A stretch of 64,000 nucleotides of DNA from a virus. Its lineage: Duplodnaviria > Caudoviricetes. The stretch is taken from IMG/VR virus record IMGVR_UViG_3300028628_000004; one strand, 5' to 3'. Shown here piece after piece: positions 8,572 through 64,000 of this stretch (the first letter of the stretch is position 1; every line of letters begins with the position of its first letter). The notes beneath the pieces are model-generated. The model was not told where the DNA came from. It made no database searches and was given only the letters and a program-made list of their open reading frames with translations. The position numbers and the translations under genes are program-made.

Positions 8572-9100
8572 GAAGATTCTTTTTGAACATCCTCTTTAAA
8601 GATTCAAGACTAAAATTAGGAGTTTCCATAGATCCAGATGGAAATAATTTCTGTCGTATCATATCTCTTGTGTTGGCTTGCTCATCGTCAAACTCTCCGC
8701 TATTATACGAATCAAGTAATTGAGTGTAGGTAAAAGATCTATTATCTTTATTTCTTATATCATGGAGGTTGATTCTTGTAAATGGACCCATGTCATCGCC
8801 AAACTTTTTTATAATCTTAGATACTACAAGTGACATGTTTCCGGAAAATTCGCAAGTCCACGAAGAATTAACTATCCTTATACGAACCCACCCTGCATCA
8901 AAAGCCTTATTAAGAAGCACTGCCCTGCTGTCAGTTTTTTTAGTTCCTTGAGGGTTATACGCCTTCTTAGATATTATTGACAAAACTTCTTTTTTTGATA
9001 TACCAAATAATTCTGGTTTATCTATTATAGTCTGACCGTGGTCGCTTGTAACAATTATCTTTCCGCTCTTGCTATTCATCCAATATCCGTTATAATCCAT
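8558..9100 (-). CDS. hypothetical protein, paralogue of 9139-9513
   Basis: TATAAATA and GAGGG upstream on minus strand; GWVRIR motif. Confidence 0.65.
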   Translation of the reverse strand: MDYNGYWMNSKSGKIIVTSDHGQTIIDKPELFGISKKEVLSIISKKAYNPQGTKKTDSRAVLLNKAFDAGWVRIRIVNSSWTCEFSGNMSLVVSKIIKKFGDDMGPFTRINLHDIRNKDNRSFTYTQLLDSYNSGEFDDEQANTRDMIRQKLFPSGSMETPNFSLESLKRMFKKNLLKSS

Positions 9101-9138
9101 GTGTATACCCTCTACACTATTTATAGGAAATATACTTT

Positions 9139-11830: not shown

Positions 11831-12922
11831 ATGAGTGTAAGTATAAGCGATTTTCTTAAAGAAATAAAATCTGTTACCAACAATCGTGGGTGTTATCTCT
11901 ACGGCGAGGCGGTGCGGGATATAATAAATAGACAGAAACCAAAGATATTTAATATATTTATTAAATCGTCACCAAGTGAAGATATAGAGATACTAAGAAA
12001 TAGCTTACCAACATATAAAAACATCAAATATACTATTGAACCTAATTTTTGTATACCTGACATATTTACTGTCAACATGTTATATTTGGATGTTAATGAT
12101 ATTCTCAATGGAAGTATTAATATACTTTCCCAGCAGAATGGCTTGAGGGATTTTAATAAATCAAGTATAAAATTTACAAAAGACGCCGCCGAGAATATTA
12201 AACCGGAATATCTTCTTGAAGCTATAAAGCTATCTGTCGTAACCGGGTTTCATTTAGACCCCAAAACCATAACTATTATATTTAACAATAGGGATAAAAT
12301 TAAAGACCTTGATAAAAGAGAAATCTATAGATTCTTGGTTGATTCTGTAAAGTTAAGAGGAACACGTAAAGTCATATCATTTCTTAATACTCTTGGGCTA
12401 TCTAATGCTTTGTTTGGATTTAAGTTGACGGAAACTTCTATTGTTAATCATTTTAATTCATTGGATGTTTTTGAATTTTTTGCTGTGGTATTGTCTGAAG
12501 TCAAGTTTGAAGACCTGAAGCCTATATTGATTGAAAAATGCGGATTTGCTGAAAGAGACACAGAACATGTATTAAAGTTATCGAAGGCTATCAATGAAAT
12601 AGAAGATGAATCAGAAATATCGGCTCGTAAGTTTCTGTCAACAATAGAAAAAAAGAGGATACCTAACGCTGTTAGACTACTTAAGAACTTAGGATACAAG
12701 AACTTAGCTAAGATTATTAAGAAAGAAAAGAGCGCCCCCGTTATATCATCTGAGTTTTGTATTGATGAAAGAATCATTAGGGCAGCTTTTGGTATTGAAA
12801 ACCCGGAAGTAGTTGGTAAGCTGTTGGAGATGGCACATCAGAAGATCATAGATGAGCCTGCGTTCAACAACCAAACTAAGATACTAACCTATCTTAACTA
12901 CGAAAGGAAAAAGTATGTCTAA
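11831..12922 (+). CDS. CCA-adding enzyme / poly(A) polymerase family homologue, catalytically degenerate
   Basis: YLYGEAVRD, FTVNML, GLRDF motifs; DxD and RRD not conserved. Confidence 0.65.
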   Translation: MSVSISDFLKEIKSVTNNRGCYLYGEAVRDIINRQKPKIFNIFIKSSPSEDIEILRNSLPTYKNIKYTIEPNFCIPDIFTVNMLYLDVNDILNGSINILSQQNGLRDFNKSSIKFTKDAAENIKPEYLLEAIKLSVVTGFHLDPKTITIIFNNRDKIKDLDKREIYRFLVDSVKLRGTRKVISFLNTLGLSNALFGFKLTETSIVNHFNSLDVFEFFAVVLSEVKFEDLKPILIEKCGFAERDTEHVLKLSKAINEIEDESEISARKFLSTIEKKRIPNAVRLLKNLGYKNLAKIIKKEKSAPVISSEFCIDERIIRAAFGIENPEVVGKLLEMAHQKIIDEPAFNNQTKILTYLNYERKKYV

Positions 12923-13731
12923 GAAATTAAAAACCGAATCGCTGTCCGTTGGTAGTCGGGTTCGACATGTTACCGATAAGAATCTCACCGAAGGAGTGGT
13001 AGTATGGAAACAGTCTTGTACTAAGGCTGTCGGATCGCGAGATGTTGTGGGGAGGCGGTGGTCGGTTCATTGGTCTAACGGGGATCGTGGAATTTATAGG
13101 AGCGTTGATATTTCTAAAATACCACCAAAGAACTTAAAGAAAATCATTTTAAAAGAAATAGAAAAAGAGGACGAGGAAGTAAATGAAGAAGAGTAAATCT
13201 ACCAAGAAAACAAAAAAAGTAGAGATAGAAGATGATGATATCATTGGTAAGAAAACCGATGCTTTGAATACAGATATTATTGAAGTTATACCCGATCAGA
13301 TTAATGGAGAAGTTGTTGAAGAAGATGAAGTTACCGTTTATCGCGATATTATGACTATGACGGACGATGAAAGGTTTTCTTCTGATGACCATATGAGTCT
13401 CTCCACTATAAGATTATCGCCGCCACCAGCCCCGGCGTGGTACGATGATGTGTCTAAGTTGAAATTCAAAGTAGGGCAATTAGTTGTCTTTAAAGGATCG
13501 AAAGATTCAACTGTATATTATGTTAGCGGTCCCGATAAGAGAGAAAATTTTTACACCATAGTTCCTGATAAGTCTCTTAAAAGTATAGCGATATCTGGGG
13601 AGCAGATAAAATTGGCTCCTAAAGATTCAAAATGGACGAAATATTGGGATACTGTTCCCGTTATTAAAGCACCATCGTGGAAGGATAAAGACATTAAGAA
13701 CAATGTCAAGAAAATTAATAAAAAGAAGTAA
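12915..13731 (+). CDS. two hypothetical proteins (12915-13196, 13183-13731), SH3/KOW-like beta-rich
   Basis: VGSRVRH and KFKVGQLVVF starts typical of small beta-barrels. Confidence 0.55.
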
Positions 13732-53749: not shown

Positions 53750-54039
53750 ATTAAATACCCCTGATAGTGTTATTTATAGGAGTATGTGAGCGTAGTTTGA
53801 TTTTAAGATACTTGGGTTGGCTTCTTTCCTCTTTCAGAGGGAGGCGAGTTTTTGTTGTCGCTAAATTGAGTTCTCGAAGACAACACGGGGTTCAGTACGA
53901 AGACATAAGGTGTCAAATACACCCAGCCCATGTAAAGCTGCTACTGACGCACAATCATATAATGTGTCCCTGTTTCCCAATTCCACGACATCCCAAGAGT
54001 GTTTCAATTGTTACATAAGAGGTTATAAATAATGATGTT

Positions 54040-54353
54040 ATGACTGATTCATCGCGAAAGTACGGGACCGATGAATATACAGCCACTCCGTCGCATTTAT
54101 TGCCAGCTATTAGTAAGAAAAGTAGCGGTTATATATGCCAAGTTTGCGGTCACTTAGAGCCATCTTTGGAAAAAATCCATTTGATGATCTATGCCCAAGG
54201 TGTGTTATTAGTGCCCTAAGAAAGATTGATGTTCCCCATATGGTCAAAATTTCTGAGTATTTAAGTGAGCGAGATGAGGCACTCGAACCAACCGTTAGAG
54301 TCGATAATAGACCAAATAGCGAGAAAACAACAGTCATCATTAAAAAGAAATAG
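54040..54353 (+). pseudogene. zinc-ribbon gene split across two frames
   Basis: YICQVCGH in the frame from ATG 54040; LCPRC in the -1 frame (ORF 54135-54353). Confidence 0.5.
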
Positions 54354-54440
54354 TGGGGTATACGACGGGATTCGAACCCGCATTGCGCTCAAGGCGCTCA
54401 GAGTCACAATCTGATGTCCTGCCGTTGGACCTCGTACACC
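54354..54440 (-). tRNA. tRNA-His(GTG), 8/4 fold with long variable arm
   Basis: G-1:C73, TCAGA-TTGTGAC-TCTGA, extra arm GCGCCTTGAGCGC, CCA. Confidence 0.8.
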
Positions 54441-54445
54441 ATGAA

Positions 54446-54521
54446 TGGGGTGGATAGCGATACTTGCAATCGCTTATGGAGATTCACAGTCTCCCAGTTT
54501 ACTATATAACCTATACCCACC
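54446..54521 (-). tRNA. tRNA-His(GTG)
   Basis: GGAGA-CTGTGAA-TCTCC, T-loop TGCAAGT, C73 CCA. Confidence 0.8.
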
Positions 54522-54531
54522 GTGCTTAGAA

Positions 54532-54906
54532 TGGTGGAGATGTGCGGTGCTGCCCCGCAGTCCAAAATCACTTTCATATTCCGTCTACAAGTTTAGAAGT
54601 TTAGACTTAAACTCCAAAGATGCTTCTTGTTGATCGTCCTGGCACGGGACTAGGATAATAACGCATATCCGCAACTCACAGTTGTCTTAATCTTGGGTAA
54701 CTGTCAGTTACATTGCCAAGAAGCAACCCCTATGTTACAGAGTTTCCAAGTCGAGATATCCTTGGGACTCTGGCAAGGAGCGATTAAGCTGCCATTGCGT
54801 ATTCAACTGAGTCATCAGTTATTTTTTTACATGTTTTTTAAGTGACCACATGTTCCACTACTTGCAAGAGATACTTCCACGATCCTGTCGAATCTGTGTC
54901 ATCCCC
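54532..54906 (-). ncRNA. ssrA: tmRNA, tag (A)DDSVEYAMAA
   Basis: GGGGATG...CATCTCCACCA with G3:U70, GATTCGAC, ATAACT then tag ORF 54816-54784. Confidence 0.93.
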
Positions 54907-54912
54907 ATAAAA

Positions 54913-54990
54913 TGGTGTGCATGAGAGGATTCGAACCTCCAACACTTACGCCCTCAACGTAATACCTCGTGCCAATTGGGTTACACGCAC
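54913..54990 (-). tRNA. tRNA-Leu(GAG), short variable loop
   Basis: TTACG-TTGAGGG-CGTAA, GTTCGAATC, CCA. Confidence 0.8.
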
Positions 54991-55820
54991 ATATTTTTTT
55001 CTAGCCAATAACCTCTAGGGAATTTTGGAATATCAATCCCTAGTTTTTTGCATCTTTTGCGTATTGCATTATCACTAACACCGAACATTTTAGCTACGCT
55101 GGTTAACGGCATTTCGTTTATATACTTCGTCAAATCACATGAAGAAACATCAAACTTTTTATTATTTTCACTAATTATAAATTCACCGCATTTTCTATTT
55201 TCATTGTAGCATTTTGCACAAACTCCTTTACTTTTTTTCGACACCACACACCCGCACATTTTACACTTTTTTTCGAAGCGTAACTTCTGGTCGTTTTCCT
55301 TTAATAAATTTTTTTGTTTAGTATTCTGAAGTTTTCCTTTATTACCCCATGTCAATGTTTGTGAATGACAGTTTGGGCATAGAAATCTAAGGTTGTTTAT
55401 TCTATTATCATTATGAATGCCGTTAATGTGGTCTACTTGCAATGTTATCTTTTCGCCCATCCACGTGTCGCCGTTATTGCATTTTTCGCATTTATATTCT
55501 CTTCCATTTTCCAATAGACGCTTACTAATCATATAACCACTTGCGGGGGTTGAATTTTCGCAGAAAAAATCTTCGTCTGATTTTCTTACTCTTATAGCCT
55601 GCATTTTTATTCTCATATCAGTCAAGGAGGTTTTCCCGCGTGACCAAGCAGACCCAGTAAAATGAGATATATCTATATTGAAGTATCTAATTAAACTCTT
55701 TATATGATTATGATTTCCACCACTATATGCCAAACCCAGATTTGCTAAAACATTTGATATTGAGGTTGATTTTTTCACAACTTCTTCTAGTATTTCCTTG
55801 GTGTACTTTCGATGTCTCAT
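54981..55820 (-). CDS. free-standing HNH homing endonuclease
   Basis: CEKC, LQVDHING...DNR..NLRFLCPNCHSQT, C-terminal HTH VSDNAIRKRC. Confidence 0.9.
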   Translation of the reverse strand: MRHRKYTKEILEEVVKKSTSISNVLANLGLAYSGGNHNHIKSLIRYFNIDISHFTGSAWSRGKTSLTDMRIKMQAIRVRKSDEDFFCENSTPASGYMISKRLLENGREYKCEKCNNGDTWMGEKITLQVDHINGIHNDNRINNLRFLCPNCHSQTLTWGNKGKLQNTKQKNLLKENDQKLRFEKKCKMCGCVVSKKSKGVCAKCYNENRKCGEFIISENNKKFDVSSCDLTKYINEMPLTSVAKMFGVSDNAIRKRCKKLGIDIPKFPRGYWLEKNMCV

Positions 55821-55883
55821 ACTGGCATCCTCCCTATATGTATTTATACACGAGGATGCCAGTAATACAAATAAAATATTAAC

Positions 55884-56330
55884 TTAAACAACTTGAGCGT
55901 TGACTGCTCTGATATCTGTTCCAGCTACTTCGGCTACTTCGGCAATCTTCTTGAGAGCCTGTAGTATATTCATAGCATTGTCAACTTTTGTCACCTTAGC
56001 ATAGATGCTTGCCATGTCACCACCGTCAGATAATGACTGTGACTCGACATTGGATACGAGCGATTCTATGCTGGACAATATGGTGGCAGGAGGCATTTTT
56101 CCACCATAGTCACCCAAGCCAAGCAAACTCTGAATCTTGCGGAATTTGCTCGTCTCAACAACAAACTTATAAGGCGAAGATCCGTTCATATTCCAATCTT
56201 CGAACATAACAACCATCATGCCAGTTGTTCTAATATCACTCTTTGGTGCCTTGGGAAACTCAAGAGGAATCTCTTCCTGTTTCTCCATAGCAATGTAAGT
56301 TTCTTTTAGCGACTCTAAGATGGTGTCCAT
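55884..56330 (-). CDS. hypothetical late protein
   Basis: TATAAATA and AAGGA upstream. Confidence 0.65.
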   Translation of the reverse strand: MDTILESLKETYIAMEKQEEIPLEFPKAPKSDIRTTGMMVVMFEDWNMNGSSPYKFVVETSKFRKIQSLLGLGDYGGKMPPATILSSIESLVSNVESQSLSDGGDMASIYAKVTKVDNAMNILQALKKIAEVAEVAGTDIRAVNAQVV

Positions 56331-56364
56331 ATGTATTCCTTATTATACCGAGTTATTTATAGAA

Positions 56365-56450
56365 TGGTAGGGGCGACAGGAATTGCACCTGCACGGGATT
56401 TCTCCCACAACGTTCTAAGCGTTGCATGGCTGCTGTTACATCACACCCCC
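56365..56450 (-). tRNA. tRNA-Leu(TAG)
   Basis: CAACG-CTTAGAA-CGTTG, long V-arm, CCA. Confidence 0.85.
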
Positions 56451-56460
56451 ATGATTTATT

Positions 56461-56550
56461 TGGCGGAAGATGAGGGATTCGAACCCCCGGTACCCGTTAA
56501 GGTACTTCAAGTTAGTAACTTGCTGCTATAGACCACTCAGCCAATCTTCC
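56461..56550 (-). tRNA. tRNA-Ser(ACT)
   Basis: Ser body, G73, long V-arm, CAAG-TTACTAA-CTTG. Confidence 0.8.
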
Positions 56551-56553
56551 GGA

Positions 56554-56633
56554 TGGTCCCACTGCTATATCGTCTTATGCTGCGAATCGCTGCGATATTG
56601 CTTAATGTCCAGTTCGCTCGTACACAGTTGGGA
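56554..56633 (-). ncRNA. CCA-ended non-cloverleaf small RNA
   Basis: TCCCAACTG/CAGTGGGA terminal helix then CCA. Confidence 0.45.
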
Positions 56634-56648
56634 TGATACGCTGGACGC

Positions 56649-56732
56649 TGGTAGGCAAGGTGGGACTCGAACCCACAAAACGACCGTGTTTGAGACGGCA
56701 AACTGTGCCATTCGTTATAACGTCACTTGCCC
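56649..56732 (-). tRNA. tRNA-Leu(CAA)
   Basis: GCCGT-CTCAAAC-ACGGT, GTTCGAGTC, CCA; enlarged D region. Confidence 0.75.
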
Positions 56733-56788
56733 ATGATCAATTTCGTTACTTTAGCGCAACGGAGTAAGAAATTGTAAGAAAGCCGTTT

Positions 56789-56922
56789 TGGTGTTGAGAG
56801 AAGGAGTTGCACCTTCACAATACAGATTTTCTGTTTCCGTATTTCCTTTTATTCATAGGAAGTCTACTACAGATGTTACCTCTTCATAGGCAATCATTCG
56901 TTTCATTTAGTCACTACTCAAC
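56789..56922 (-). ncRNA. tRNA-like RNA A (expanded D region, non-canonical anticodon loop)
   Basis: GTTGAG/CTCAAC-A-CCA, T-arm GAAGG-TGCAACT-CCTTC. Confidence 0.65.
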
Positions 56923-56928
56923 ATGAGA

Positions 56929-57055
56929 TGGTGCCCCGCCGCTGACACGCTCAGCTATTACGGAAGGTCTTTTACCTTTCTAACCCCTCAAATCCTTTCG
57001 GATGCTGGAGAGAAGTCTGCTGTCCCCTACGAGGACAGGTGAAGGTTGGCGGGGC
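56929..57055 (-). ncRNA. tRNA-like RNA C (8-bp acceptor, no anticodon loop)
   Basis: GCCCCGCC/GGCGGGGC-A-CCA, internal hairpins. Confidence 0.6.
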
Positions 57056-57078
57056 GAGTTGTTTATCCAGCTTTGATT

Positions 57079-57196
57079 TGGTGTTGAGGGTAGGACTTGC
57101 ACCTACATACTTGGATGCATGCTGGTCCAAGTTCCCTCTAAAACGAGGGTGCGTCTACTACGGGAATTGAACCCGCTCTTTCCGCCACTACTCAAC
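57079..57196 (-). ncRNA. tRNA-like RNA B, paralogue of A
   Basis: GTTGAGTAGTGGC...GTAGTAGAC...CTCAACACCA. Confidence 0.65.
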
Positions 57197-57197
57197 G

Positions 57198-57339
57198 TGG
57201 TGTCGATGGTAGGATTCGCACCTACACGCTCAAGCGTCCATGAGTTGTTTCCTTCTCATTTTTGCTAAGCCCCAGGTTTGGACCATGCTTTCGTTTAGGT
57301 CTTCAGCCCAGTCCGTCTGCTCGTTGCGGCACATACGAC
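57198..57339 (-). tRNA. tRNA-like gene with GAA (Phe) anticodon loop and ~70-nt variable region
   Basis: TGGG-CTGAAGA-CCTA, T-arm GTAGG-TGCGAAT-CCTAC, ACCA. Confidence 0.55.
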
Positions 57340-57348
57340 AAGAAAACA

Positions 57349-57465
57349 TAAGTATGCTCGGGAGTCGAACCCGACATCATTGGGGTGCATGCAGCCCCTC
57401 CACCGTGGATATGCATCTCTGCATACGGTAGGATTCGAACCTACTAGCGACCATCGACATACTTA
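57349..57465 (-). ncRNA. double T-arm RNA
   Basis: TAAGTATG/CATACTTA closing helix enclosing two TTCGA hairpins. Confidence 0.55.
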
Positions 57466-57468
57466 CTT

Positions 57469-57542
57469 TGGCACATGGGGAGAGAATCGAACTCCCATCT
57501 TTGGGTTTGGAATCCAAGGTACTACCATTGTACGACCCATGT
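57469..57542 (-). tRNA. tRNA-Trp(CCA)
   Basis: loop TTCCAAA, G73 CCA. Confidence 0.85.
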
Positions 57543-57550
57543 ATAAAATC

Positions 57551-57940
57551 TTTGTTGACCCATCCGGTGTGCTGTTACGCTAAAACGGTGGTTTGCTTTA
57601 CTATCTATTATACACCCACAATCACACATAATCCACTCGTGTGGACTTTGACGAGCAATAGATTGCTCTGCGTATGAAAGAGAGGCGGATTTCTTACGAA
57701 ACCAATCTTACTCGCCTCACTCGGTGGGAACCCCATACTTGGAGTTGATGTGACAAGTTACTCATACGCTGGCTACAAGTGGTTCTCGGTCTTCCTTTTT
57801 ATCGGCTGTCTTTATAGCTTGCTCTAAGGCTTGCTTTCAAGACTCCTTGTAGTAGTCGTATGCTTGCTCATTTCTATACAGCGCCCGTACTCTTTAAATG
57901 ATGGCTGCTTCTAAGCCGACATTTCGGTTCGGTCAACAAA
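57551..57940 (-). ncRNA. large ncRNA containing a split 23S rRNA H43-H44 (L11-binding) mimic
   Basis: 10-bp terminal helix TTTGTTGACC/GGTCAACAAA; ATGTCGGCTTAGAAGCAGCCATCATTTAAAGAGT ... GCGTAACAGCACACCGG. Confidence 0.8.
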
Positions 57941-58013
57941 ACTTGAGGTTTCTTAAAGTCGCTTATCCTCTTGCGACATGACAGTTTCAACTCCAACTCT
58001 GTCAAAGGGAAAA

Positions 58014-58112
58014 TGGTGCGGGCGACAGGATTTGAACCTGCGATTTCTTGCTCCCTGGCAGTTACTATTAGGTAACTAAAGCAAGCGGAATACCAGACTT
58101 TCCTACACCCAC
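58014..58112 (-). tRNA. tRNA-Pro(TGG) interrupted by 22-nt insert (58056-58077)
   Basis: CTTGC-TTT[AGTTACCTAATAGTAACTGCCA]GGGA-GCAAG. Confidence 0.75.
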
Positions 58113-58144
58113 ATCAGAAACTATTATATCACATAAAAAGAAAA

Positions 58145-58219
58145 TGGTCTGGGCGGTTGGAGTCGCACCAACTTCTTCTCCCTTCCAAAAGGAGCCGTCT
58201 ACTGTTGACCTACGCCCAG
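58145..58219 (-). tRNA. tRNA-Pro(TGG)
   Basis: C1:G72, CTCCT-TTTGGAA-GGGAG, CCA. Confidence 0.85.
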
Positions 58220-58220
58220 G

Positions 58221-58931
58221 TTATATTTCAATTCCAAGAATTTTACATCTTTTTCTTATTGCATTATCAGACACCCCGTATTTTACACCTATTTTAGTCA
58301 TAGGCATTTTGCTAACATCATCCATTAACTGCTCTTTACTAACTTCAAATTTACGGCGTTTCTTACAAGAACATTTTAGACATTTATTGTTTTTATTTTT
58401 TGTTGTTACACACCCACATTCGTCACAGTTATGTCTTTTTGCGTGATATTGTTTATTTTTACCAGAAAAAGTAGAAGTTTGAGAGTGGCAGTTTGGGCAT
58501 AAGAAACATAGATTTTCTATTCTGTTATCATTATGTATTCCATTCTTATGTTCTAATTGAAGAGTTATTATCTTACCCAACCATACTCCATTGTTCCCAC
58601 AGCAACTACACTCGTATTTTAGTAATCCTTCATTGACCAATCTTTTTTTAAGATAATGTCTAGCGTATGATGAATTCTGGGTTAATACCTGTGATAATGG
58701 TTTCTTCTTGGCGTTAAATTTTCTACCTTTATTGGAACCTACGCCGAGTGCTATATGTGAAATATCTACTTTTTCTTCGATGCATCTATTTTTAATTGTC
58801 TTGTAATTTCCTCCTTTATTTTCCATTCCGACATATTTTAGTATTTCGCTTATAGTGTTAGATGATGCTACTAATCTAGCGAATTCTTCTTTTGGTATTT
58901 TCCAAATTATGCTTCTCTTTTTTCTTGTCAT
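58221..58931 (-). CDS. free-standing HNH homing endonuclease, paralogue of 54981-55820
   Basis: LQLEHKNG...DNRIENLCFLCPNCHSQT, VSDNAIRKRC. Confidence 0.9.
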   Translation of the reverse strand: MTRKKRSIIWKIPKEEFARLVASSNTISEILKYVGMENKGGNYKTIKNRCIEEKVDISHIALGVGSNKGRKFNAKKKPLSQVLTQNSSYARHYLKKRLVNEGLLKYECSCCGNNGVWLGKIITLQLEHKNGIHNDNRIENLCFLCPNCHSQTSTFSGKNKQYHAKRHNCDECGCVTTKNKNNKCLKCSCKKRRKFEVSKEQLMDDVSKMPMTKIGVKYGVSDNAIRKRCKILGIEI

Positions 58932-58990
58932 ATATTCTCCTTATCGGTAGTATATTATACCATGTATTTATATATCCTACCGATAAAAAC

Positions 58991-59064
58991 TGGTTGGCTC
59001 ACTAGGTTCTGCCCCTAGACTAAAACGTTCAAAGCGTTGTATGCTGCTGTTACATCATGAGCCA
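58991..59064 (-). tRNA. tRNA-Gln(TTG)
   Basis: U1:A72, AACG-CTTTGAA-CGTT, CCA. Confidence 0.8.
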
Positions 59065-59071
59065 ATGATAG

Positions 59072-59188
59072 TTGGGAGTGAGGGATTCGAACCCCCACAG
59101 AGAGATCCTGGCGACTGTTTATGGACTTGAACCACATTGTTTCCTATAACAATCAAAGTCTCTCGTCCTACCATTAGACGAACCCCCA
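59072..59188 (-). tRNA. tRNA-Gln(TTG) interrupted by 46-nt insert (59109-59154)
   Basis: AGAGA-CTTT[GATTGTT...AACAGTCGCCA]GGA-TCTCT; no encoded terminal CCA. Confidence 0.75.
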
Positions 59189-59194
59189 ATGAAA

Positions 59195-59269
59195 TGGTTG
59201 GCACGGTAGGTGCTGCCCCTACTACGTCGGGTGTCAGAAACCCGCATTCTGCTGTTGAATTACGTGCCA
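59195..59269 (-). tRNA. tRNA-Gln(CTG)
   Basis: CGGGT-TTCTGAC-ACCCG, CCA. Confidence 0.85.
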
Positions 59270-59274
59270 GTAAC

Positions 59275-59712
59275 TTACTTCTTAATCGACTTAATCAACT
59301 TAGCAAACTTCCCAGGATTTACTGTGCATGCTTTTATGCCACCGAAGTAATCGGCAACATGGAAAGCAGCTACACATATCTCTGAGCATATCCACTTACT
59401 AGGATCTTCCTTTCTGAAGGGAAGAATCATGGAAAAGAAAATAGCTTTCCAGTCATATTTCTTATCTACTTGTGTCCAACAGAAAGCTTTAATCAACAAT
59501 TCTTTTTCTGGTGGAACATCAACTTCAACTATATCCCAATGCTGATGGAAGTACATCTTATATGTAAATTGTGTCTTAAAGGGAGAAGTGAGAGAAGTCC
59601 CAAATGAGGAACCGTCAGAAAATATAAGCTCGCAATGGGAATACTTTGAGAATGTCCAGAACTGGATGAGTCTGTCAAGTATTCCCGTTCCCTTTAAGAA
59701 TGCAACTTTCAT
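59275..59712 (-). CDS. permuted papain-like (YiiX/YaeF, NlpC/P60) protein
   Basis: YSHCEL, KYDW, WICSE motif order. Confidence 0.75.
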   Translation of the reverse strand: MKVAFLKGTGILDRLIQFWTFSKYSHCELIFSDGSSFGTSLTSPFKTQFTYKMYFHQHWDIVEVDVPPEKELLIKAFCWTQVDKKYDWKAIFFSMILPFRKEDPSKWICSEICVAAFHVADYFGGIKACTVNPGKFAKLIKSIKK

Positions 59713-59749
59713 AGAGCCTCCATAAGTATTTATCCTACGGAGTAAAAAA

Positions 59750-59824
59750 TGGTGCCTGCCCCCGGTAACGCTCCGGGTTTGTCCGCTCTTCAGGCGGGTG
59801 CTTTACTATTTAAGCTAGACAGGC
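59750..59824 (-). tRNA. tRNA-Phe(GAA)
   Basis: CCGC-CTGAAGA-GCGG, T-loop AGCGTTA, CCA. Confidence 0.8.
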
Positions 59825-59827
59825 ATA

Positions 59828-59898
59828 TGCAGGATAGAGGAATCGAACCTCTGACTCCGGCTTAACTGCCGGTGTGATAACCACTTCACCAATCCCGC
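59828..59898 (-). tRNA. tRNA-like gene with 6-nt anticodon loop, undetermined
   Basis: Full cloverleaf, CCGGC-AGTTAA-GCCGG, no CCA. Confidence 0.55.
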
Positions 59899-60088
59899 TA
59901 GGTTTTTGCAGAACCTTAACTGACTTTCTATCATTATAGTGGCGAAGATCATCCACTTTTAAGTAGCTTGGGGTACTACTTGTGTAGCATTCCGTAGCTA
60001 ACGGAGATGCCCTTTACCAACCCTCTATAATTATTGTGGCGGGGATCGTCCACAGTAAAGCAGCTTTGAGCGTCCTCATTGCCCTATC

Positions 60089-60160
60089 AAGTATCATTAC
60101 GGAATCGAACCGTTCCTCCCGCGTCATAAGCGGGTATGCATCCGTTACACCAAAGATACT
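60089..60160 (-). tRNA. tRNA-like gene with ATG anticodon (His codon box)
   Basis: CCCGC-TTATGAC-GCGGG, GTTCGATTC; imperfect acceptor, no CCA. Confidence 0.55.
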
Positions 60161-60174
60161 CTTAGCTTCAAACT

Positions 60175-60251
60175 TGGCGACTCCAGTGGGGTTTGAACCC
60201 ACGACCTATTGCGTGACAAGCAATTGCTCTCCCAGGCTGAGCTATGGAGCC
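60175..60251 (-). tRNA. tRNA-Asp(GTC)
   Basis: ATTGC-TTGTCAC-GCAAT, G73 CCA. Confidence 0.9.
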
Positions 60252-60255
60252 ATAA

Positions 60256-60330
60256 TGGCGGGTCTAGGGAGACTTGCGCTCCCCTTTTCGGATCGACAAT
60301 CCGATATGTCGCTATCTACATTTTAGACCC
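60256..60330 (-). tRNA. tRNA-Asp(GTC), variant elbow
   Basis: TCGGA-TTGTCGA-TCCGA, T-loop CGCAAGT, G73 CCA. Confidence 0.8.
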
Positions 60331-60447
60331 AAAAGACCACACCGTTTCTGCATTGTTAAGAGGCTGGTATGGTGCTACTGAACGACCACTCATGGTTGAG
60401 CATCTTAGAGAGGCTTGAGTGGGGCGGAGCCGTTTCATGCTCCTTAT

Positions 60448-60526
60448 TGGTGGGCAAGGTGGGAATCGAACCCGACCTCAACAACTTTATCAGAGTTGCA
60501 CTAGCATACCAGCTAGACTCTTGCCC
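60448..60526 (-). tRNA. tRNA-Ile(GAT)
   Basis: CAACT-CTGATAA-AGTTG, CCA. Confidence 0.8.
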
Positions 60527-60739
60527 AAAAATGTACCAACTTCACGCATCGGTCCATGAGCATTCAAATAAGGTTCTTCCATTGAAGGAAATGAATGATC
60601 TTATAGGAGACAGGGTGCTACCCTGGCTGAACAGCGGCGTTAAGGATCCCCTTCCGGGTCCAAGTGGATTTATTCTCCCCTCGACATGGAGATTTTGGTG
60701 GTGGATATATTTTAAGACCGCTACCGCCACACGGTCTGC

Positions 60740-60814
60740 TGGCACCCCAGGAAGGACTCGCACCTTTCATCTTCGGTTTCGTAGACCGACGTTCTTCTGT
60801 TATACTACCGGGGT
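60740..60814 (-). tRNA. tRNA-Arg(ACG)
   Basis: TCGGT-CTACGAA-ACCGA, CCA. Confidence 0.85.
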
Positions 60815-60821
60815 ATGAGAA

Positions 60822-60892
60822 TGGCAGGCAATCGTGGTGCTTACCCACGCTGATCTTCGTTCGAAGCGATGATTGCTCTCGGAGCATTGCCC
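60822..60892 (-). tRNA. degenerate tRNA-Arg(TCG)
   Basis: GGGCAAT/ATTGCCT-G-CCA, TCG-CTTCGAA-CGA; reduced D-arm, odd T-loop. Confidence 0.55.
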
Positions 60893-60904
60893 ATGAAAAA
60901 GATT

Positions 60905-61041
60905 GTAGCAAGACGGCTACATAAGCCGCATTCATCATCAAGATAACTACCCGTCCTGGGAACTTAATCGTGGGACTTCAACCCCCGTAGTTAGGCTCTT
61001 TATTTCCCCTTGATGTGTCTTTATGTTTAGACGATTGCTAC
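60905..61041 (-). ncRNA. unknown structured RNA
   Basis: Nested helices GTAGCAA/TTGCTAC, CATCAAG/CTTGATG, TAACTAC/GTAGTTA. Confidence 0.5.
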
Positions 61042-61042
61042 T

Positions 61043-61230
61043 TGGTGGGGGAGGTTGGATTCGAACCAACATGCCTCATCGGAACTTATCAGTTAAGTCC
61101 CACGCCTTACGCTCGTTGGGTAATTACTCCGTATGAGCATCGTGGGTTGAATTCTCTATTGTGAGTAACGTTATCTCTCACAGAAAATTCGTTTGTTCAA
61201 CGAGTCGCTTTGCCATTAGCGTACTCCCCC
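61043..61230 (-). ncRNA. tRNA scaffold with ~80-nt structured insertion replacing the anticodon loop
   Basis: GGGGGAG/CTCCCCC-A-CCA, normal D and T arms, CTCGTTG/CAACGAG stem. Confidence 0.7.
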
Positions 61231-61281
61231 AAAAGATGAAGGTTGCTTGCGTTAGTGGAAGCGAGCCTACAAACCTACGCA

Positions 61282-61355
61282 TGGTGGGCAATAAGGGAAT
61301 CAAACCCCTGTATTCTGAACGTCAATCAGATGTTCTATCATTGAACTAATCGCCC
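61282..61355 (-). tRNA. tRNA-Val(GAC)
   Basis: TCTGA-TTGACGT-TCAGA, CCA. Confidence 0.85.
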
Positions 61356-61484
61356 ATAAATCAAACTACGCTATAGAGTTGTTAAACGAAGCATTCGCTT
61401 CGTGGCTCTACTATAAGAGGTCTTCTGTGTAATACAATAGGAGCGACACACATACATCAGGAGTGTATCACACAGAAGCTTTGC

Positions 61485-61573
61485 TGGCGGAATCACACTG
61501 AATCGAACAGTCCAGACCTTCAAGCCTGGGGACGGCTTTCGAAACCGATTGAACACCTTGTTCCCGTGACTCC
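61485..61573 (-). tRNA. tRNA-Ser(CGA), 8/4 fold
   Basis: GGAGTCAC/GTGATTCC acceptor, 4-bp T-stem, loop TTCGAAA, long V-arm, G73. Confidence 0.8.
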
Positions 61574-61580
61574 AAAACTT

Positions 61581-61673
61581 TGGCGGATAGAGAGGGATTC
61601 GAACCCCCGGTGCCCGTTAAAAGGCACTTCGGTTTTCAAAACCGACGCAATCGACCTACTCTGCCATCTATCC
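61581..61673 (-). tRNA. tRNA-Ser(TGA)
   Basis: TCGGT-TTTGAAA-ACCGA, long V-arm, G73 CCA. Confidence 0.92.
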
Positions 61674-61677
61674 ATGC

Positions 61678-62064
61678 CTACATCCATAATCTACCTAATC
61701 TTTTTTCAAATAGCTTTTGAGCCTTTAAAAACATCTTTGCGTCCTCCGCACATAAAGATGGATATACTTGAGGTTTCTCTTTACTAGGAAGACGAGTAAC
61801 AGTGGAGAAGCCATCTATCATTGCCTTCAAGTCCCTGACAAGTTTCTTGTCTTGCTTATCATCTGGATGCATCTTATGAAGATACATCTTGAGACGAGGA
61901 ACTATCCAGCTACAAAAGGCAACATCCAAGTTTATTATTTCTTCGGCTCGGATTGCTTTGTTGCTCACGATATCATCAGCGAGTTTGAGAAGGCTCTCAT
62001 TTTTTTCTCTGAGCTTCTCGTTTTCTTCTTCGAGTTGCTTGATGTATATCTTTTCCTGTGTCAT
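61678..62064 (-). CDS. hypothetical protein
   Basis: TTGATA-16-TATAAT-6-ATG; N-terminal coiled coil. Confidence 0.7.
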   Translation of the reverse strand: MTQEKIYIKQLEEENEKLREKNESLLKLADDIVSNKAIRAEEIINLDVAFCSWIVPRLKMYLHKMHPDDKQDKKLVRDLKAMIDGFSTVTRLPSKEKPQVYPSLCAEDAKMFLKAQKLFEKRLGRLWM

Positions 62065-62098
62065 ACACCTATTATAACTATGGTATATGATATATCAA

Positions 62099-62188
62099 TG
62101 GTGGAGTAAGGAGTAATCGAAACTCTGCCCCCTTGCGGCGACCTTTCGCTTTCCAGGCGAACGCATCTCCCCGATGCTTCTCTACTCC
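62099..62188 (-). tRNA. tRNA-Ser(GGA), non-canonical fold
   Basis: TTCGC-CTGGAAA-GCGAA, long V-arm, CCA. Confidence 0.75.
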
Positions 62189-62194
62189 ATGAAA

Positions 62195-62476
62195 TTAACC
62201 GCCAAGTATCTTATCAAAATCAAACTTATCTTTGATAAACTTATGAAAAAACTGACCTTTACTTGGTGAAAATTTAAATTTATCTTTTAAGAATCTTGAT
62301 ATGTTGTTATAAGCATATACTACAGAAGGGTCGCCTTCAAACCTAATATACAATATTTTTTTCTTACGTGAATATCCAGATTGGATAATAGCAGTCGAAT
62401 CAACATTTGTTGGTGTTAAATTGGCTTCTTCAAGTTTCTTCCAAGTTTCTTGGAGATGTTTATGAATATTATCCAT
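62195..62476 (-). CDS. KTSC domain protein
   Basis: VDSTAI...GY....LYIRF....YAY.......SKGQFFHKFIK; start 62476 avoids overlapping tRNA-Thr. Confidence 0.8.
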   Translation of the reverse strand: MDNIHKHLQETWKKLEEANLTPTNVDSTAIIQSGYSRKKKILYIRFEGDPSVVYAYNNISRFLKDKFKFSPSKGQFFHKFIKDKFDFDKILGG

Positions 62477-62495
62477 GTATTCATATTTATAAAAT

Positions 62496-62569
62496 TGGTG
62501 CTGCTCCAAGGAATCGAACCTTGTTTCCCTACATACCAAGCAGGTGTAATACCAGTATACTAGAGCAGC
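62496..62569 (-). tRNA. tRNA-Thr(GGT)
   Basis: CCTGC-TTGGTAT-GTAGG, CCA. Confidence 0.88.
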
Positions 62570-62572
62570 ATA

Positions 62573-62715
62573 AGACCAGAGAAGAGATTGGGAGCAACAG
62601 TGTTTTTGCCGCTCTGCCGTTGAGCTACCTCACCGTTTGTGGTGAGGGTAGGATTCGAACCTACATCCTGCTCCTTATAATGGAAGTAACCGTCACAATG
62701 ACTACTTCTCTGGTT
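62573..62715 (-). ncRNA. YrlA-type Y RNA (permuted tRNA-like domain)
   Basis: Terminal helix ACCAGAGAAG/CTTCTCTGGT; T-arm precedes a loop-closed acceptor stem and then a D-arm TAGCTCAACGGCAGAGC. Confidence 0.75.
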
Positions 62716-62716
62716 T

Positions 62717-62807
62717 TGGTGGAAGGTGGGAGAATCGAACTCCATTCCCATTAAAGGGAACAATTTCTTTAGCAAAGAATTCCAGTACCACACTGGTTCT
62801 ACCTTCC
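62717..62807 (-). tRNA. tRNA-Ser(GCT), 8/4-like fold
   Basis: TTCT-TTGCTAA-AGAA, long V-arm, 4-bp T-stem, CCA. Confidence 0.8.
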
Positions 62808-62834
62808 ATAATCAAACTACGCTTATAATGTTGT

Positions 62835-62870
62835 AAAAAGAAAAACCCCGACTTTTTGAGTCAGGGTTTT
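62835..62870 (-). terminator. intrinsic terminator of putative attenuator
   Basis: AAAACCCTGACT-CAAAA-AGTCGGGGTTTTTCTTTTT. Confidence 0.85.
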
Positions 62871-62899
62871 CAGAGGGTGCCTATTTTTAGGTCTTTCTC

Positions 62900-63004
62900 T
62901 TACTTACCTGACTCCTGAGTAATAAAATCAGAGAGACGGCGACTCGACAACCATGATGGTTGGAGTTGCTGGACTGGCTGATGGGTGGGTAGGAGGTTAA
63001 TCAT
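62900..63004 (-). promoter_or_regulatory. putative leader peptide MINLLPTHQPVQQLQPSWLSSRRLSDFITQESGK
   Basis: 34-codon ORF 13 nt after TATAAATA (63025-63018), overlapping the antiterminator strand. Confidence 0.6.
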
Positions 63005-63106
63005 AATGTTCTATCTTTATTTATATGCGTATTCTAACATGTCCTGAGAAAAATACAATAAGTATTTTTACCATTGCGTAGTTTGTAATGTTTATAAGGA
63101 CTTACA

Positions 63107-63382
63107 TCAACTTTCCGAAAGGTCATCTTGAACTTCTTTACGAATAACTTCTTCGAGAAGACCATGCTCATCCTTCCACTTGGAAGCACAGCCAGGAATC
63201 TTATGCCCGTGGCATAACCCGCAGTCAGTACGACCACAGTCACAGGGATGCTTGACGGCAAGCCTATTTTTTTCATTTTCAAAATACTTAACTCGTTTCT
63301 TATCCGTTTCCTTCAAAAACTTTAAACGGTTGTCTGCAACTCGTTTCGTCTGTGATCTGCGCCATACTCGACTGCGTTTCAT
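63107..63382 (-). CDS. small basic Cys/His protein
   Basis: AAGGAG SD; HPCDCGRTDCGLCH. Confidence 0.7.
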   Translation of the reverse strand: MKRSRVWRRSQTKRVADNRLKFLKETDKKRVKYFENEKNRLAVKHPCDCGRTDCGLCHGHKIPGCASKWKDEHGLLEEVIRKEVQDDLSES

Positions 63383-63406
63383 GTAATTCTCCTTGTTAAT
63401 AAAGCT

Positions 63407-63481
63407 TGGTGCTACTTGAGAGATTTGAACTCCCGACCTTCTGTTTACAAAACAGATACACTACCACTGTGTTAAAGTAGC
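63407..63481 (-). tRNA. tRNA-Thr(TGT)
   Basis: TCTGT-TTTGTAA-ACAGA, CCA. Confidence 0.9.
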
Positions 63482-63485
63482 ATAA

Positions 63486-63560
63486 TGGTGCCCCCACCAC
63501 GACTCTCACATGGCTTTCCGGAGTACAAAACCGGTGTGTCGATATCTACACTTTAGGGGC
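63486..63560 (-). tRNA. tRNA-Thr(TGT), variant elbow
   Basis: CCGG stem, loop TTTGTAC, T-loop TGAGAGT, CCA. Confidence 0.78.
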
Positions 63561-63592
63561 ATATGCCTCCCACTGAAGGGAGGTCTTGTAAT

Positions 63593-63970
63593 TTACTTCA
63601 AAAGCGACAGCTTACCGAAAATAGCTTTGGACACTTCGTTGTCGATGGGTTCAAAAGCAGTTGCGGTTTCTGCGTTAGACATATCGGGTTCTATGAAGGT
63701 GGTGTATGATAACTCCATTCTGTCATAGAGTGCCTTTATGCTTGCAATTTCGTTATCCGTTGCGGAGAGAAGAATCATTGTCTTGTGGTTGTTCACCCAA
63801 TCAATGACTTTGGGCTTCTGTCCGTGTTGTGCCATAAACTCGGCAGCCGCGTGGCTACTCTGTACAGCACAATGAGTTAACGGAAGTATATCTCGTCTGA
63901 TGAGGATGAACATCTTAAGCATTTTGCTATATACCTCCGGTGCCACAGGCACACTCGGGTATGAGAGCAT
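63593..63970 (-). CDS. PTH2-like peptidyl-tRNA hydrolase
   Basis: MFILIRRD, AVQSSHA, W....KT.ILL, F.EPD....TA.A, L.LL; alternative start 63922 with GGAGGT SD. Confidence 0.75.
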   Translation of the reverse strand: MLSYPSVPVAPEVYSKMLKMFILIRRDILPLTHCAVQSSHAAAEFMAQHGQKPKVIDWVNNHKTMILLSATDNEIASIKALYDRMELSYTTFIEPDMSNAETATAFEPIDNEVSKAIFGKLSLLK

Positions 63971-64000
63971 CTTGTTTCTCCTTGACGTAATCTTCCATTC

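Follow-up and report, generated by a model that had tools for sequence, protein, structure and literature searches.

A possible codon-matched transcription attenuator preceding a set of phage tRNA genes

This study concerns a short cassette that precedes a block of transfer RNA (tRNA) genes in an uncultured T4-like phage of the class Caudoviricetes (IMG/VR record IMGVR_UViG_3300028628_000004). The reading we consider most likely, with a chance somewhat above even, is that the cassette acts as a ribosome-mediated, codon-matched transcription attenuator of those genes. The case made in silico comprises an intrinsic terminator, an alternative helix that competes with it, the geometry of the ribosome footprint, a match between the codons of a short leader and the tRNAs encoded downstream, conservation in related phages, and a second, divergent instance of the same design. 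From these we infer translation of the leader's open reading frame (ORF), operation of the switch in vivo, and tRNA supply as its signal. The stretch of DNA analyzed, called here the window, consists of the 64,000 nucleotides (nt) at bases 37482-101481 of the 101.6-kb record, whose completeness is estimated at 44%. All elements of the cassette are on the minus strand, within a tRNA island that extends from 63560 down to 54354 and holds about 24 tRNA genes plus a gene for transfer-messenger RNA (tmRNA). tRNAs were called with ARAGORN and RNA families with Rfam.

Architecture and folding of the cassette

The leader ORF has 34 sense codons, from ATG at 63004 to TAA at 62902-62900, and lacks a Shine-Dalgarno (SD) sequence. 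Beyond it lies an intrinsic terminator (62871-62835), with a stem-loop at 62871-62841 (a stem of 13 base pairs (bp) and a loop of 5 nt) and a T5-C-T5 tail that ends at 62835. It is the sole strong terminator on the sense strand, outside of tRNA bodies, in the region 54000-64000. A preliminary description of this DNA, made without database searches, had recognized a TATAAATA box, the 34-codon ORF, and the strong terminator, and a reading of the sequence finds all three where they were placed.

The same description had pointed to an exact complementarity between GAGTCAGG, near the end of the ORF, and CCTGACTC, in the arm and loop of the terminator. This, too, is borne out. The first of these, segment 2 (62914-62907), occupies codons 31-33 and would be the 5' strand of an antiterminator. 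It is invariant in the six sequences of this type available (that of the window and five from relatives, described below). Its exact complement, segment 3 (62865-62858), takes in the final 7 nt of the 5' arm of the terminator along with the first base of its loop and is thus common to antiterminator and terminator. Nested between the two segments is a spacer hairpin (62900-62872), with outer pairs AGAG/CUCU and inner pairs CCUA/UAGG. A further hairpin domain (62982-62927) covers codons 8-26 of the ORF, is followed by a U-rich run, and appears in every predicted fold. It is a candidate for a 'segment 1' domain or a pause domain, but because it is invariant in the relatives, it allows no test of covariation. 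The fold z-score of the RNA is -3.0, and the 5' part is C/A-rich and unpaired.

Folding the alternatives, as the preliminary description had suggested, finds the helix between segments 2 and 3 (2:3) both competitive and unusual. In nascent RNA truncated before the 3' arm of the terminator, the 8-bp 2:3 helix forms with a predicted probability of 0.96-1.0 in the window and in relatives L006 and L009, and 0.41 in L012. When the 2:3 helix is forced upon full-length RNA, that of the window loses nothing, its energy being exactly the minimum free energy, and those of the relatives lose 6-9 kcal/mol. Addition of the 5' arm stabilizes the nascent RNA by -9.9 kcal/mol, vs 0 to -6.5 kcal/mol for some 25 other compact terminators taken from the same record and related loci. 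Dinucleotide shuffles of the upstream 130 nt seldom reach the value observed: 2 of 1000 for the window (p = 0.002), 6 of 1000 for L012, and 42 of 1000 for a distant relative, L007.

The position of the ribosome was modeled by masking a 28-nt footprint and moving the P site along the ORF. With the P site at any of codons 1-26, the 2:3 helix remains intact. From codon 28 to the stop codon, it is lost and the terminator forms. The geometry therefore fits the earlier proposal that a ribosome at the stop codon permits termination while one stalled upstream frees the antiterminator. The proposal of a 1:2 helix, with G-U pairs, that would compete in turn with 2:3 fared less well: the only register available, CUGAUUUU with GGAGUCAG, contains three G-U pairs and is found in no predicted minimum-energy fold. 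The likeness to the trp and his attenuators that had been claimed extends to the ORF, the terminator, the 2:3 helix, and the placement of the stop codon, and stops short of the 1:2 helix, the SD sequence (missing from leaders of the window type), and the runs of a single codon.

Two other features were considered and set aside. An internal start behind AGGAG (62916-62912) has no start codon to use, and an anti-SD-like 'seed', CCUCCU, in the 5' part of the leader is not conserved in L012.

Codons of the leader and the tRNAs that follow

According to the preliminary description, the leader samples largely the set of codons decoded by the downstream tRNAs, and the numbers agree. With codons assigned by standard wobble rules, the tRNAs 3' of the terminator read 31 codons, accounting for 47% of usage in the long ORFs of the record. 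Against that background, 27 of the 34 leader codons are read by the downstream tRNAs (binomial p = 1.4e-4); among the 25 'sensing' codons (2-26), the count is 22-23. The match is specific to the frame, as the other two frames give 19 and 21 matches, each of 38. It was attained by 23 of 5000 composition-preserving shuffles, and its value is the highest among the 357 ORFs in the record that begin with ATG and have 25-45 codons.

Three of the tRNAs in the island have anticodons with A at position 34, which is unusual in bacteria: Ser(ACT) at 56461-56550, His(ATG) at 60089-60160, and Thr(AGT) at 58014-58112, all on the minus strand. Their exact codons, AGT, CAT, and ACT, are all present in the leader. 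There are also two weak candidates for tRNA-Ser, with anticodons GGA (62188-62099) and CGA (61573-61485), both on the minus strand and both called only at relaxed thresholds, the first matching Rfam with 25.8 bits. If the two are real, then the block serves all six codons for serine.

A second cassette with an unrelated leader

The distant relative L007 carries a cassette (3841-4003) with a homologous promoter and a homologous terminator, between which the leader is unrelated to that of the window. It lies directly 5' of the first of about 24 tRNA genes plus tmRNA. In this case, the leader does have an SD sequence, AAGGAA, 5 nt before the ATG (-5.4 kcal/mol), followed by an ORF of 16 codons that ends with TAG at 3934-3936. 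Two nt past the TAG is segment 2, CAGGGTTG (3938-3945), an exact complement of positions 3969-3976 in the arm of the terminator. The complement is the loop-distal part of the arm, unlike the window, where it is the loop-proximal part. As in the window, a hairpin is nested between the two complementary segments. The predicted probability of the 2:3 helix is 0.99, and in the footprint model a ribosome on codons 15-16 or on the stop prevents it.

Of the 16 codons of the L007 leader, which include Tyr, Ile-ATA, Ala, Lys, Glu, Gly, and Val-GTA, 13-14 are read by tRNAs that L007 itself encodes downstream, a level reached by 142 of 5000 shuffles. When the two phages are crossed, the match falls away: only 3-6 of the 16 L007 codons are read by the tRNA set of the window, and only 14 of the 34 codons of the window leader by that of L007. 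Since architecture and codon logic have been kept while the sequence has been replaced, L007 provides the strongest argument for function.

Conservation among relatives

Relatives were sought by way of homologues of two neighboring proteins, one of 91 amino acids (aa) and one similar to PTH2, and the contigs that encode them, and by a scan with one DNA word, which gave L009. Five syntenic metagenome contigs (L006, L009, L010, L011, and the more divergent L012) keep the cassette; together with L007, which repeats the layout, they supply the conservation in related phages that the preliminary description had proposed to look for. Other searches gave little. A comparison with GenBank phages (blastn, distant mode) found matches to tRNAs only, and scans of IMG/VR with proteins (those of 91 and 128 aa and PTH2), with an alignment, with three words from leader and terminator, and with a generic terminator pattern found only distant PTH2 loci. 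A scan of metagenomes with a protein alignment and a pattern scan of genome contigs found nothing. Five contigs, L013, L014, and L016-L018, have the PTH2 gene without the cassette. Within the 101.6-kb record, a BLAST search with the cassette finds only itself, just the type of promoter and the box behind the terminator recurring by themselves.

In L006 and L009, the leader ORF is 97-98% identical to that of the window, vs 76% for the adjacent coding sequence of 91 codons and 88% for PTH2. The tRNA-Ser gene behind the cassette is 99% identical in L006 and 69% in L009. The ORF, of 34-35 codons, is open in all six sequences of the window type, even in L012 with its seven substitutions and in-frame insertion of 3 nt. 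That insertion is the sole indel within the ORF in any of the relatives, while outside of it the cassette has about six, of 1-2 nt or in the T tract, that are not multiples of three. Substitutions in the ORF over all relatives amount to two synonymous and seven nonsynonymous. Constraint therefore acts on both the codons and the RNA and not on the peptide; what is kept are nucleotides, frame, and stop.

The changes seen in the hairpins are informative. Two types of terminator stem occur among the relatives, CCCUGACU/AGUCGGGG and CCCUGGCU/AGCCAGGG, which differ at two compensated positions, and the spacer hairpin of L012 has exchanged an inner A-U pair for U-A (CCUU/AAGG), again a compensatory change. 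The terminator and the nested hairpin are therefore real. In L006 and L012, the arm that contains segment 3 reads CCTGGCTC, and pairing with segment 2 is retained through one G-U pair.

Promoters, boxes, and the surrounding island

A sigma70-like promoter with an extended -10 element is found at 63058-63031: -35 hexamer TTGTAT (63058-63053), a 16-nt spacer, TG (63039-63038), and -10 hexamer TAGAAT (63036-63031). The hexamers, the TG, and the spacing of 16 nt are constant in L006 and L009-L012, while the sequence of the spacer varies, and L007 has a promoter of the same type (TTGAAA, 16 nt, TGgTAGAAT). Adjoining the promoter on its downstream side is the TATAAATA box (63025-63018), 13 nt 5' of the ATG and invariant in all relatives. 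T4 late promoters have the sequence TATAAATA, and the box resembles one. There are 18 copies of it in the window (7.3 expected), most of them 10-40 nt 5' of an SD sequence and ATG and in the same orientation as the gene, which is where late promoters of the T4 type would be expected. One lies only 7 nt 5' of the ATG of an ORF of about 93 aa (62476-62195, minus strand). The ORF is missing from L006 (1107-1115), where tRNA-Thr(GGT) and the tRNA-like gene after it lie end to end, so there is an insertion/deletion polymorphism within the array.

Between the T tract of the terminator and the first tRNA downstream is a box (TTTTTACAAC ... GCGTAGTTTGATTAT; 62839-62808), 89-96% conserved, that looks like a boxA-like pre-tRNA leader. 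A second copy stands directly 5' of tRNA-Val (61386-61356), behind a sigma70-like promoter and a small hairpin. The boxA-like core, TTTTTACAAC or TTTAACAAC, is at 62839-62830 and 61386-61378. The boxA of rrnB contains GCTCTTTAACAA (PMC2176067), a similarity that offers a lead and may go no further. The region 61437-61356 (minus strand) thus looks like another unit of tRNA transcription, one that has no leader ORF: TTGTAT, 16 nt, TATAGT, a 5-bp hairpin, a TTTAACAAC...GCGTAGTTTGATT box, and tRNA-Val. One more copy of the box, in opposite orientation, lies just beyond the end of the array (53789-53803).

The first gene that needs read-through of the terminator is tRNA-Ser(GCT) (62807-62717, minus strand), which begins 1 nt past the box and whose codon, AGT, occurs in the leader at position 21. 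Since the 33 nt after the terminator leave no room for a promoter, its transcription requires read-through. The box itself was considered as a promoter for tRNA-Ser and rejected: transcription would start within the tRNA, and at tRNA-Val this box stands behind a promoter that is real.

The preliminary description was right to put the terminator just before tRNA-Ser(GCT) but not to put it ahead of the RNA array. Two tRNA genes (63560-63407), the PTH2-like gene, and the gene for the 91-aa protein, which has a strong SD sequence, lie 5' of the cassette, and the terminator is inside the island. Within the 8 kb of RNA genes said to follow, there are protein ORFs and additional promoter-like sites as well. 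A 'Y RNA' said to be downstream is a sub-threshold match to YrlA at 62671-62608 (minus strand; 32 bits vs a gathering score of 69, E = 4e-5), which adjoins a tRNA-like module (62711-62639). That region is 83% conserved in relatives.

The window also encodes functions of the T4 type, an Rnl1-like RNA ligase, a baseplate wedge protein, and a hub/tail lysozyme, and the island contains, besides several protein ORFs, an RNA with the abiF motif. The motif (RF03085) exceeds its gathering score in the islands of both phages, at 60385-60422 (minus strand) in the window and at 12499-12535 in L007. Carried along with the tRNAs, this RNA may serve as a decoy or resemble an antitoxin. A tRNA-like gene that ARAGORN could not name (59898-59828, minus strand) has the anticodon loop AGTTAAG, possibly with a UUA anticodon that reads ochre, and relatives (L007 at 12830-13358; L009-L014) have one or two tRNAs with the amber-reading anticodon CUA. 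Since the leaders end with TAA in the window and TAG in L007, suppression could interact with the switch. The gene for tRNA-Gln(TTG) (59188-59071, minus strand) has an insert of 46 nt in its anticodon loop, as called by ARAGORN under relaxed settings (the Rfam match to tRNA spans 117 nt), and a tRNA-like gene in L007 has a match to a group I intron within it (8936-9121).

Discussion

How might the cassette work? Transcripts would begin at the sigma70-like promoter, at the TATAAATA box, or farther upstream and enter the 34-codon ORF. As the RNA emerges, segment 2 would pair with segment 3 around the small conserved hairpin, and for as long as it does, the terminator hairpin could not nucleate. 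With 2:3 standing, RNA polymerase would go on to transcribe tRNA-Ser(GCT), then the Y-like RNA and tRNA-Thr, and then what lies farther downstream. Rapid translation to the last codons or the stop would place the footprint of the ribosome over segment 2, leaving segment 3 free, the terminator would form, and transcription would stop at 62841-62835. Slow decoding of any of the codons served, whether from shortage or cleavage of a tRNA or some other translation stress, would hold the ribosome upstream of codon 27 and turn the block on. Ample supply of tRNA would turn it off.

Several considerations weigh against this account. The leader lacks an SD sequence in all six sequences of the window type. 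Its duplex energy, -0.9 kcal/mol, is at the level of random sequence, as compared with a median of -5.5 kcal/mol for genes and -8.5 kcal/mol for the neighboring gene, and nearly all genes of the phage have an SD sequence. In E. coli, A/U-rich leaders give hardly any help to very weak SD sequences (PMC2176067). The L007 leader, for its part, does have one. If transcription is initiated late, from TATAAATA, only about 7 nt would precede the ATG. The 1:2 helix is weak, and therefore, unlike trp, the prediction for a leader that goes untranslated is read-through, with no state of 'superattenuation'. Since the copies of the window type are nearly identical, the 2:3 helix offers no test of covariation; a single position differs, with G in place of A in the arm, and pairing there is no more than tolerated, as G-U. 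The shuffle test is not significant for L006 (118 of 1000; p = 0.12), and the statistics for the window are post hoc, as the site was picked for these very features. Nowhere does the leader repeat a codon in tandem, as classical leaders do. Finally, there are promoter-like sites farther along the block (TATAAATA at 62491-62484, TTGATA-16-TATAAT at 62098-62071, and TTGTAT-16-TATAGT at 61437-61410), and therefore full control by the switch would be limited to the proximal genes, while the codon match was counted across the whole 8-kb block. With those sites downstream and tRNAs upstream, the notion that the leader gates the entire RNA array has to be given up.

What else might the cassette be? 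Perhaps it encodes a stand-alone small RNA (sRNA) of about 175-190 nt with its own promoters and a constitutive terminator, one stable or regulatory RNA more in an island of tRNA, tmRNA, and Y RNA, the ORF being incidental and the tRNAs fed by leakage and by other promoters. We think this unlikely, though it is the most probable of the alternatives. Promoter plus strong terminator is the usual layout of an sRNA gene, and conservation at the nucleotide level (97-98%) is equal to that of tRNAs and far above that of the neighboring coding sequences. The absence of an SD sequence, a ratio of nonsynonymous to synonymous change (dN/dS) that is about neutral, the C/A-rich unpaired 5' part, and the fold z-score of -3.0 are all what one might expect of such an RNA. 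It leaves unexplained, however, why the only indel in the ORF is in frame, why the codon match is specific to one frame, why two unrelated leaders each place the stop within a ribosome footprint of segment 2, and why the ORF of L007 bears an SD sequence. Moreover, no Rfam family matches, and tRNA-Ser(GCT) lacks its own promoter. One role need not preclude the other: the terminated leader of an attenuator could also act in trans. As for a third possibility, that the gene is an ordinary one for a protein of 34 aa, there is the ATG, the frame open in all relatives, and the in-frame indel. But this would be a protein gene with no SD sequence, with a peptide unrelated to that in L007, with seven nonsynonymous changes against two synonymous, and with almost no synonymous drift beside neighbors that have diverged by 12-24%. 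It is very improbable.

Or perhaps the terminator is conditional but does not respond to translation. It might be governed by a protein of the phage or its host, by a processive antitermination complex of the Nus/boxA type that is loaded at the box behind the terminator, or by an RNA that binds segment 2. The missing SD sequence suits such a switch, the 2:3 helix and the terminator helix (3:4) are real alternatives in silico, and behind the terminator, as again 5' of tRNA-Val, there is a conserved box whose core is like TTTAACAA, comparable to the rrnB boxA with its GCTCTTTAACAA (PMC2176067). The box, however, is 3' of the terminator and so could not act upon it before RNA polymerase had arrived. 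The partners that come to mind are candidates only, there is no match to a T-box or riboswitch, and codon match, conservation of frame, and placement of the stop go unexplained. This we judge still less probable than an sRNA. Less probable again is a mobile cassette of promoter and stem-loop, like the PeSL elements, kept nearly identical by recombination and serving as an insulator without any sensing, with the ORF and complementarity due to chance. T4-type phages do hold conserved cassettes of sigma70 promoter and terminator in plastic regions as sites of recombination (PMC2839356), and the flanks in this case are mosaic, as seen in the tRNA-Ser gene (99% identical in L006 vs 69% in L009) and in an ORF of 114 aa found only in the window. 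But the leader is present in a single copy in the 101.6-kb record, the stem-loop of PeSL is at or just upstream of its promoter while here it is some 150-160 nt downstream, and chance is disfavored by the shuffle tests, by the ranking among 357 ORFs, and by L007.

The attenuator that we favor over these alternatives resembles those of enterobacterial amino acid operons (trpL, hisL, pheL, leuL) in several respects: a short ORF separates the promoter from an intrinsic terminator, a segment 5' of the terminator can pair with its 5' arm and would be covered by a ribosome terminating at the stop, and the codons are related to the products of the operon, with several species sensed, as in ilvL and thrL. 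It differs from them in that the genes regulated would be those of tRNAs and not of biosynthetic enzymes, in its location in a phage, in its roughly 20 types of codon without tandem runs, in the lack of an SD sequence in copies of the window type, and in the weak 1:2 helix, with an untranslated leader predicted to read through. Closer in purpose is pheST, where attenuation through the pheM leader governs a component of the decoding machinery by sensing the supply of charged tRNA. There, phenylalanine alone is sensed and a synthetase gene is regulated; here, it would be many codons and the tRNA genes themselves.

Stalling of a ribosome in a short upstream ORF also favors an antiterminator in vmlR and yxjB/tlrB of B. 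subtilis and in the mycobacterial whiB7 upstream ORF (PMC9226507, PMC6851288, PMC10274678), much the logic of the 'translation-stress sensor' that was first suggested for this DNA. Those systems respond, unlike the case here, to antibiotics or to one amino acid, with protein genes as the target and no relation to a codon inventory. PeSL shares with the cassette a conserved sigma70-like promoter, an effective stem-loop terminator, and a setting in plastic T4-type regions with mosaic flanks (PMC2839356). PeSL elements, however, are of about 100 bp, occur in many copies per genome, have the stem-loop at the promoter, and end at the SD sequence and ATG of a gene (PMC2839356), while the cassette is single, its promoter is separated from its terminator by an ORF of 105 nt and a nested hairpin, and a tRNA follows. 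T-box riboswitches likewise report the status of tRNA by a choice between terminator and antiterminator, but they bind uncharged tRNA directly, without an ORF, and Rfam gives no T-box match at E <= 10 in the region 62480-63110.

Phage tRNA arrays are now viewed as countermeasures to host defenses that target tRNA and to decay of the host's tRNAs. Full-text literature searches turned up no description of tRNA genes or phage tRNA arrays being attenuated through a leader peptide. Attenuation by a leader is itself well known for genes of amino acid metabolism; its use on tRNA genes, which we have not found published, is what would be new here.

The leaders of the window and L007, different in sequence and each suited to its own tRNAs, suggest that a group of large T4-like phages may generally control these genes by blocks. 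More tentatively, with a chance we put slightly below even, the tRNA genes of these phages may be split into blocks, each headed by a 'codon-inventory' leader that serves as a self-silencing OR-gate sensor of tRNA supply. A stall at any of about 20 types of codon would turn on the matching replacement tRNAs, and the stall could come from cleavage by a host anticodon nuclease or from tRNA decay induced by the phage. If so, phages would have a direct feedback sensor of tRNA supply, reading it through the speed at which the codons served by the following genes are decoded. Classical attenuation would be extended from the biosynthesis of amino acids to the tRNA genes themselves, and the leader would constitute a compact, programmable 'codon-stress' switch.

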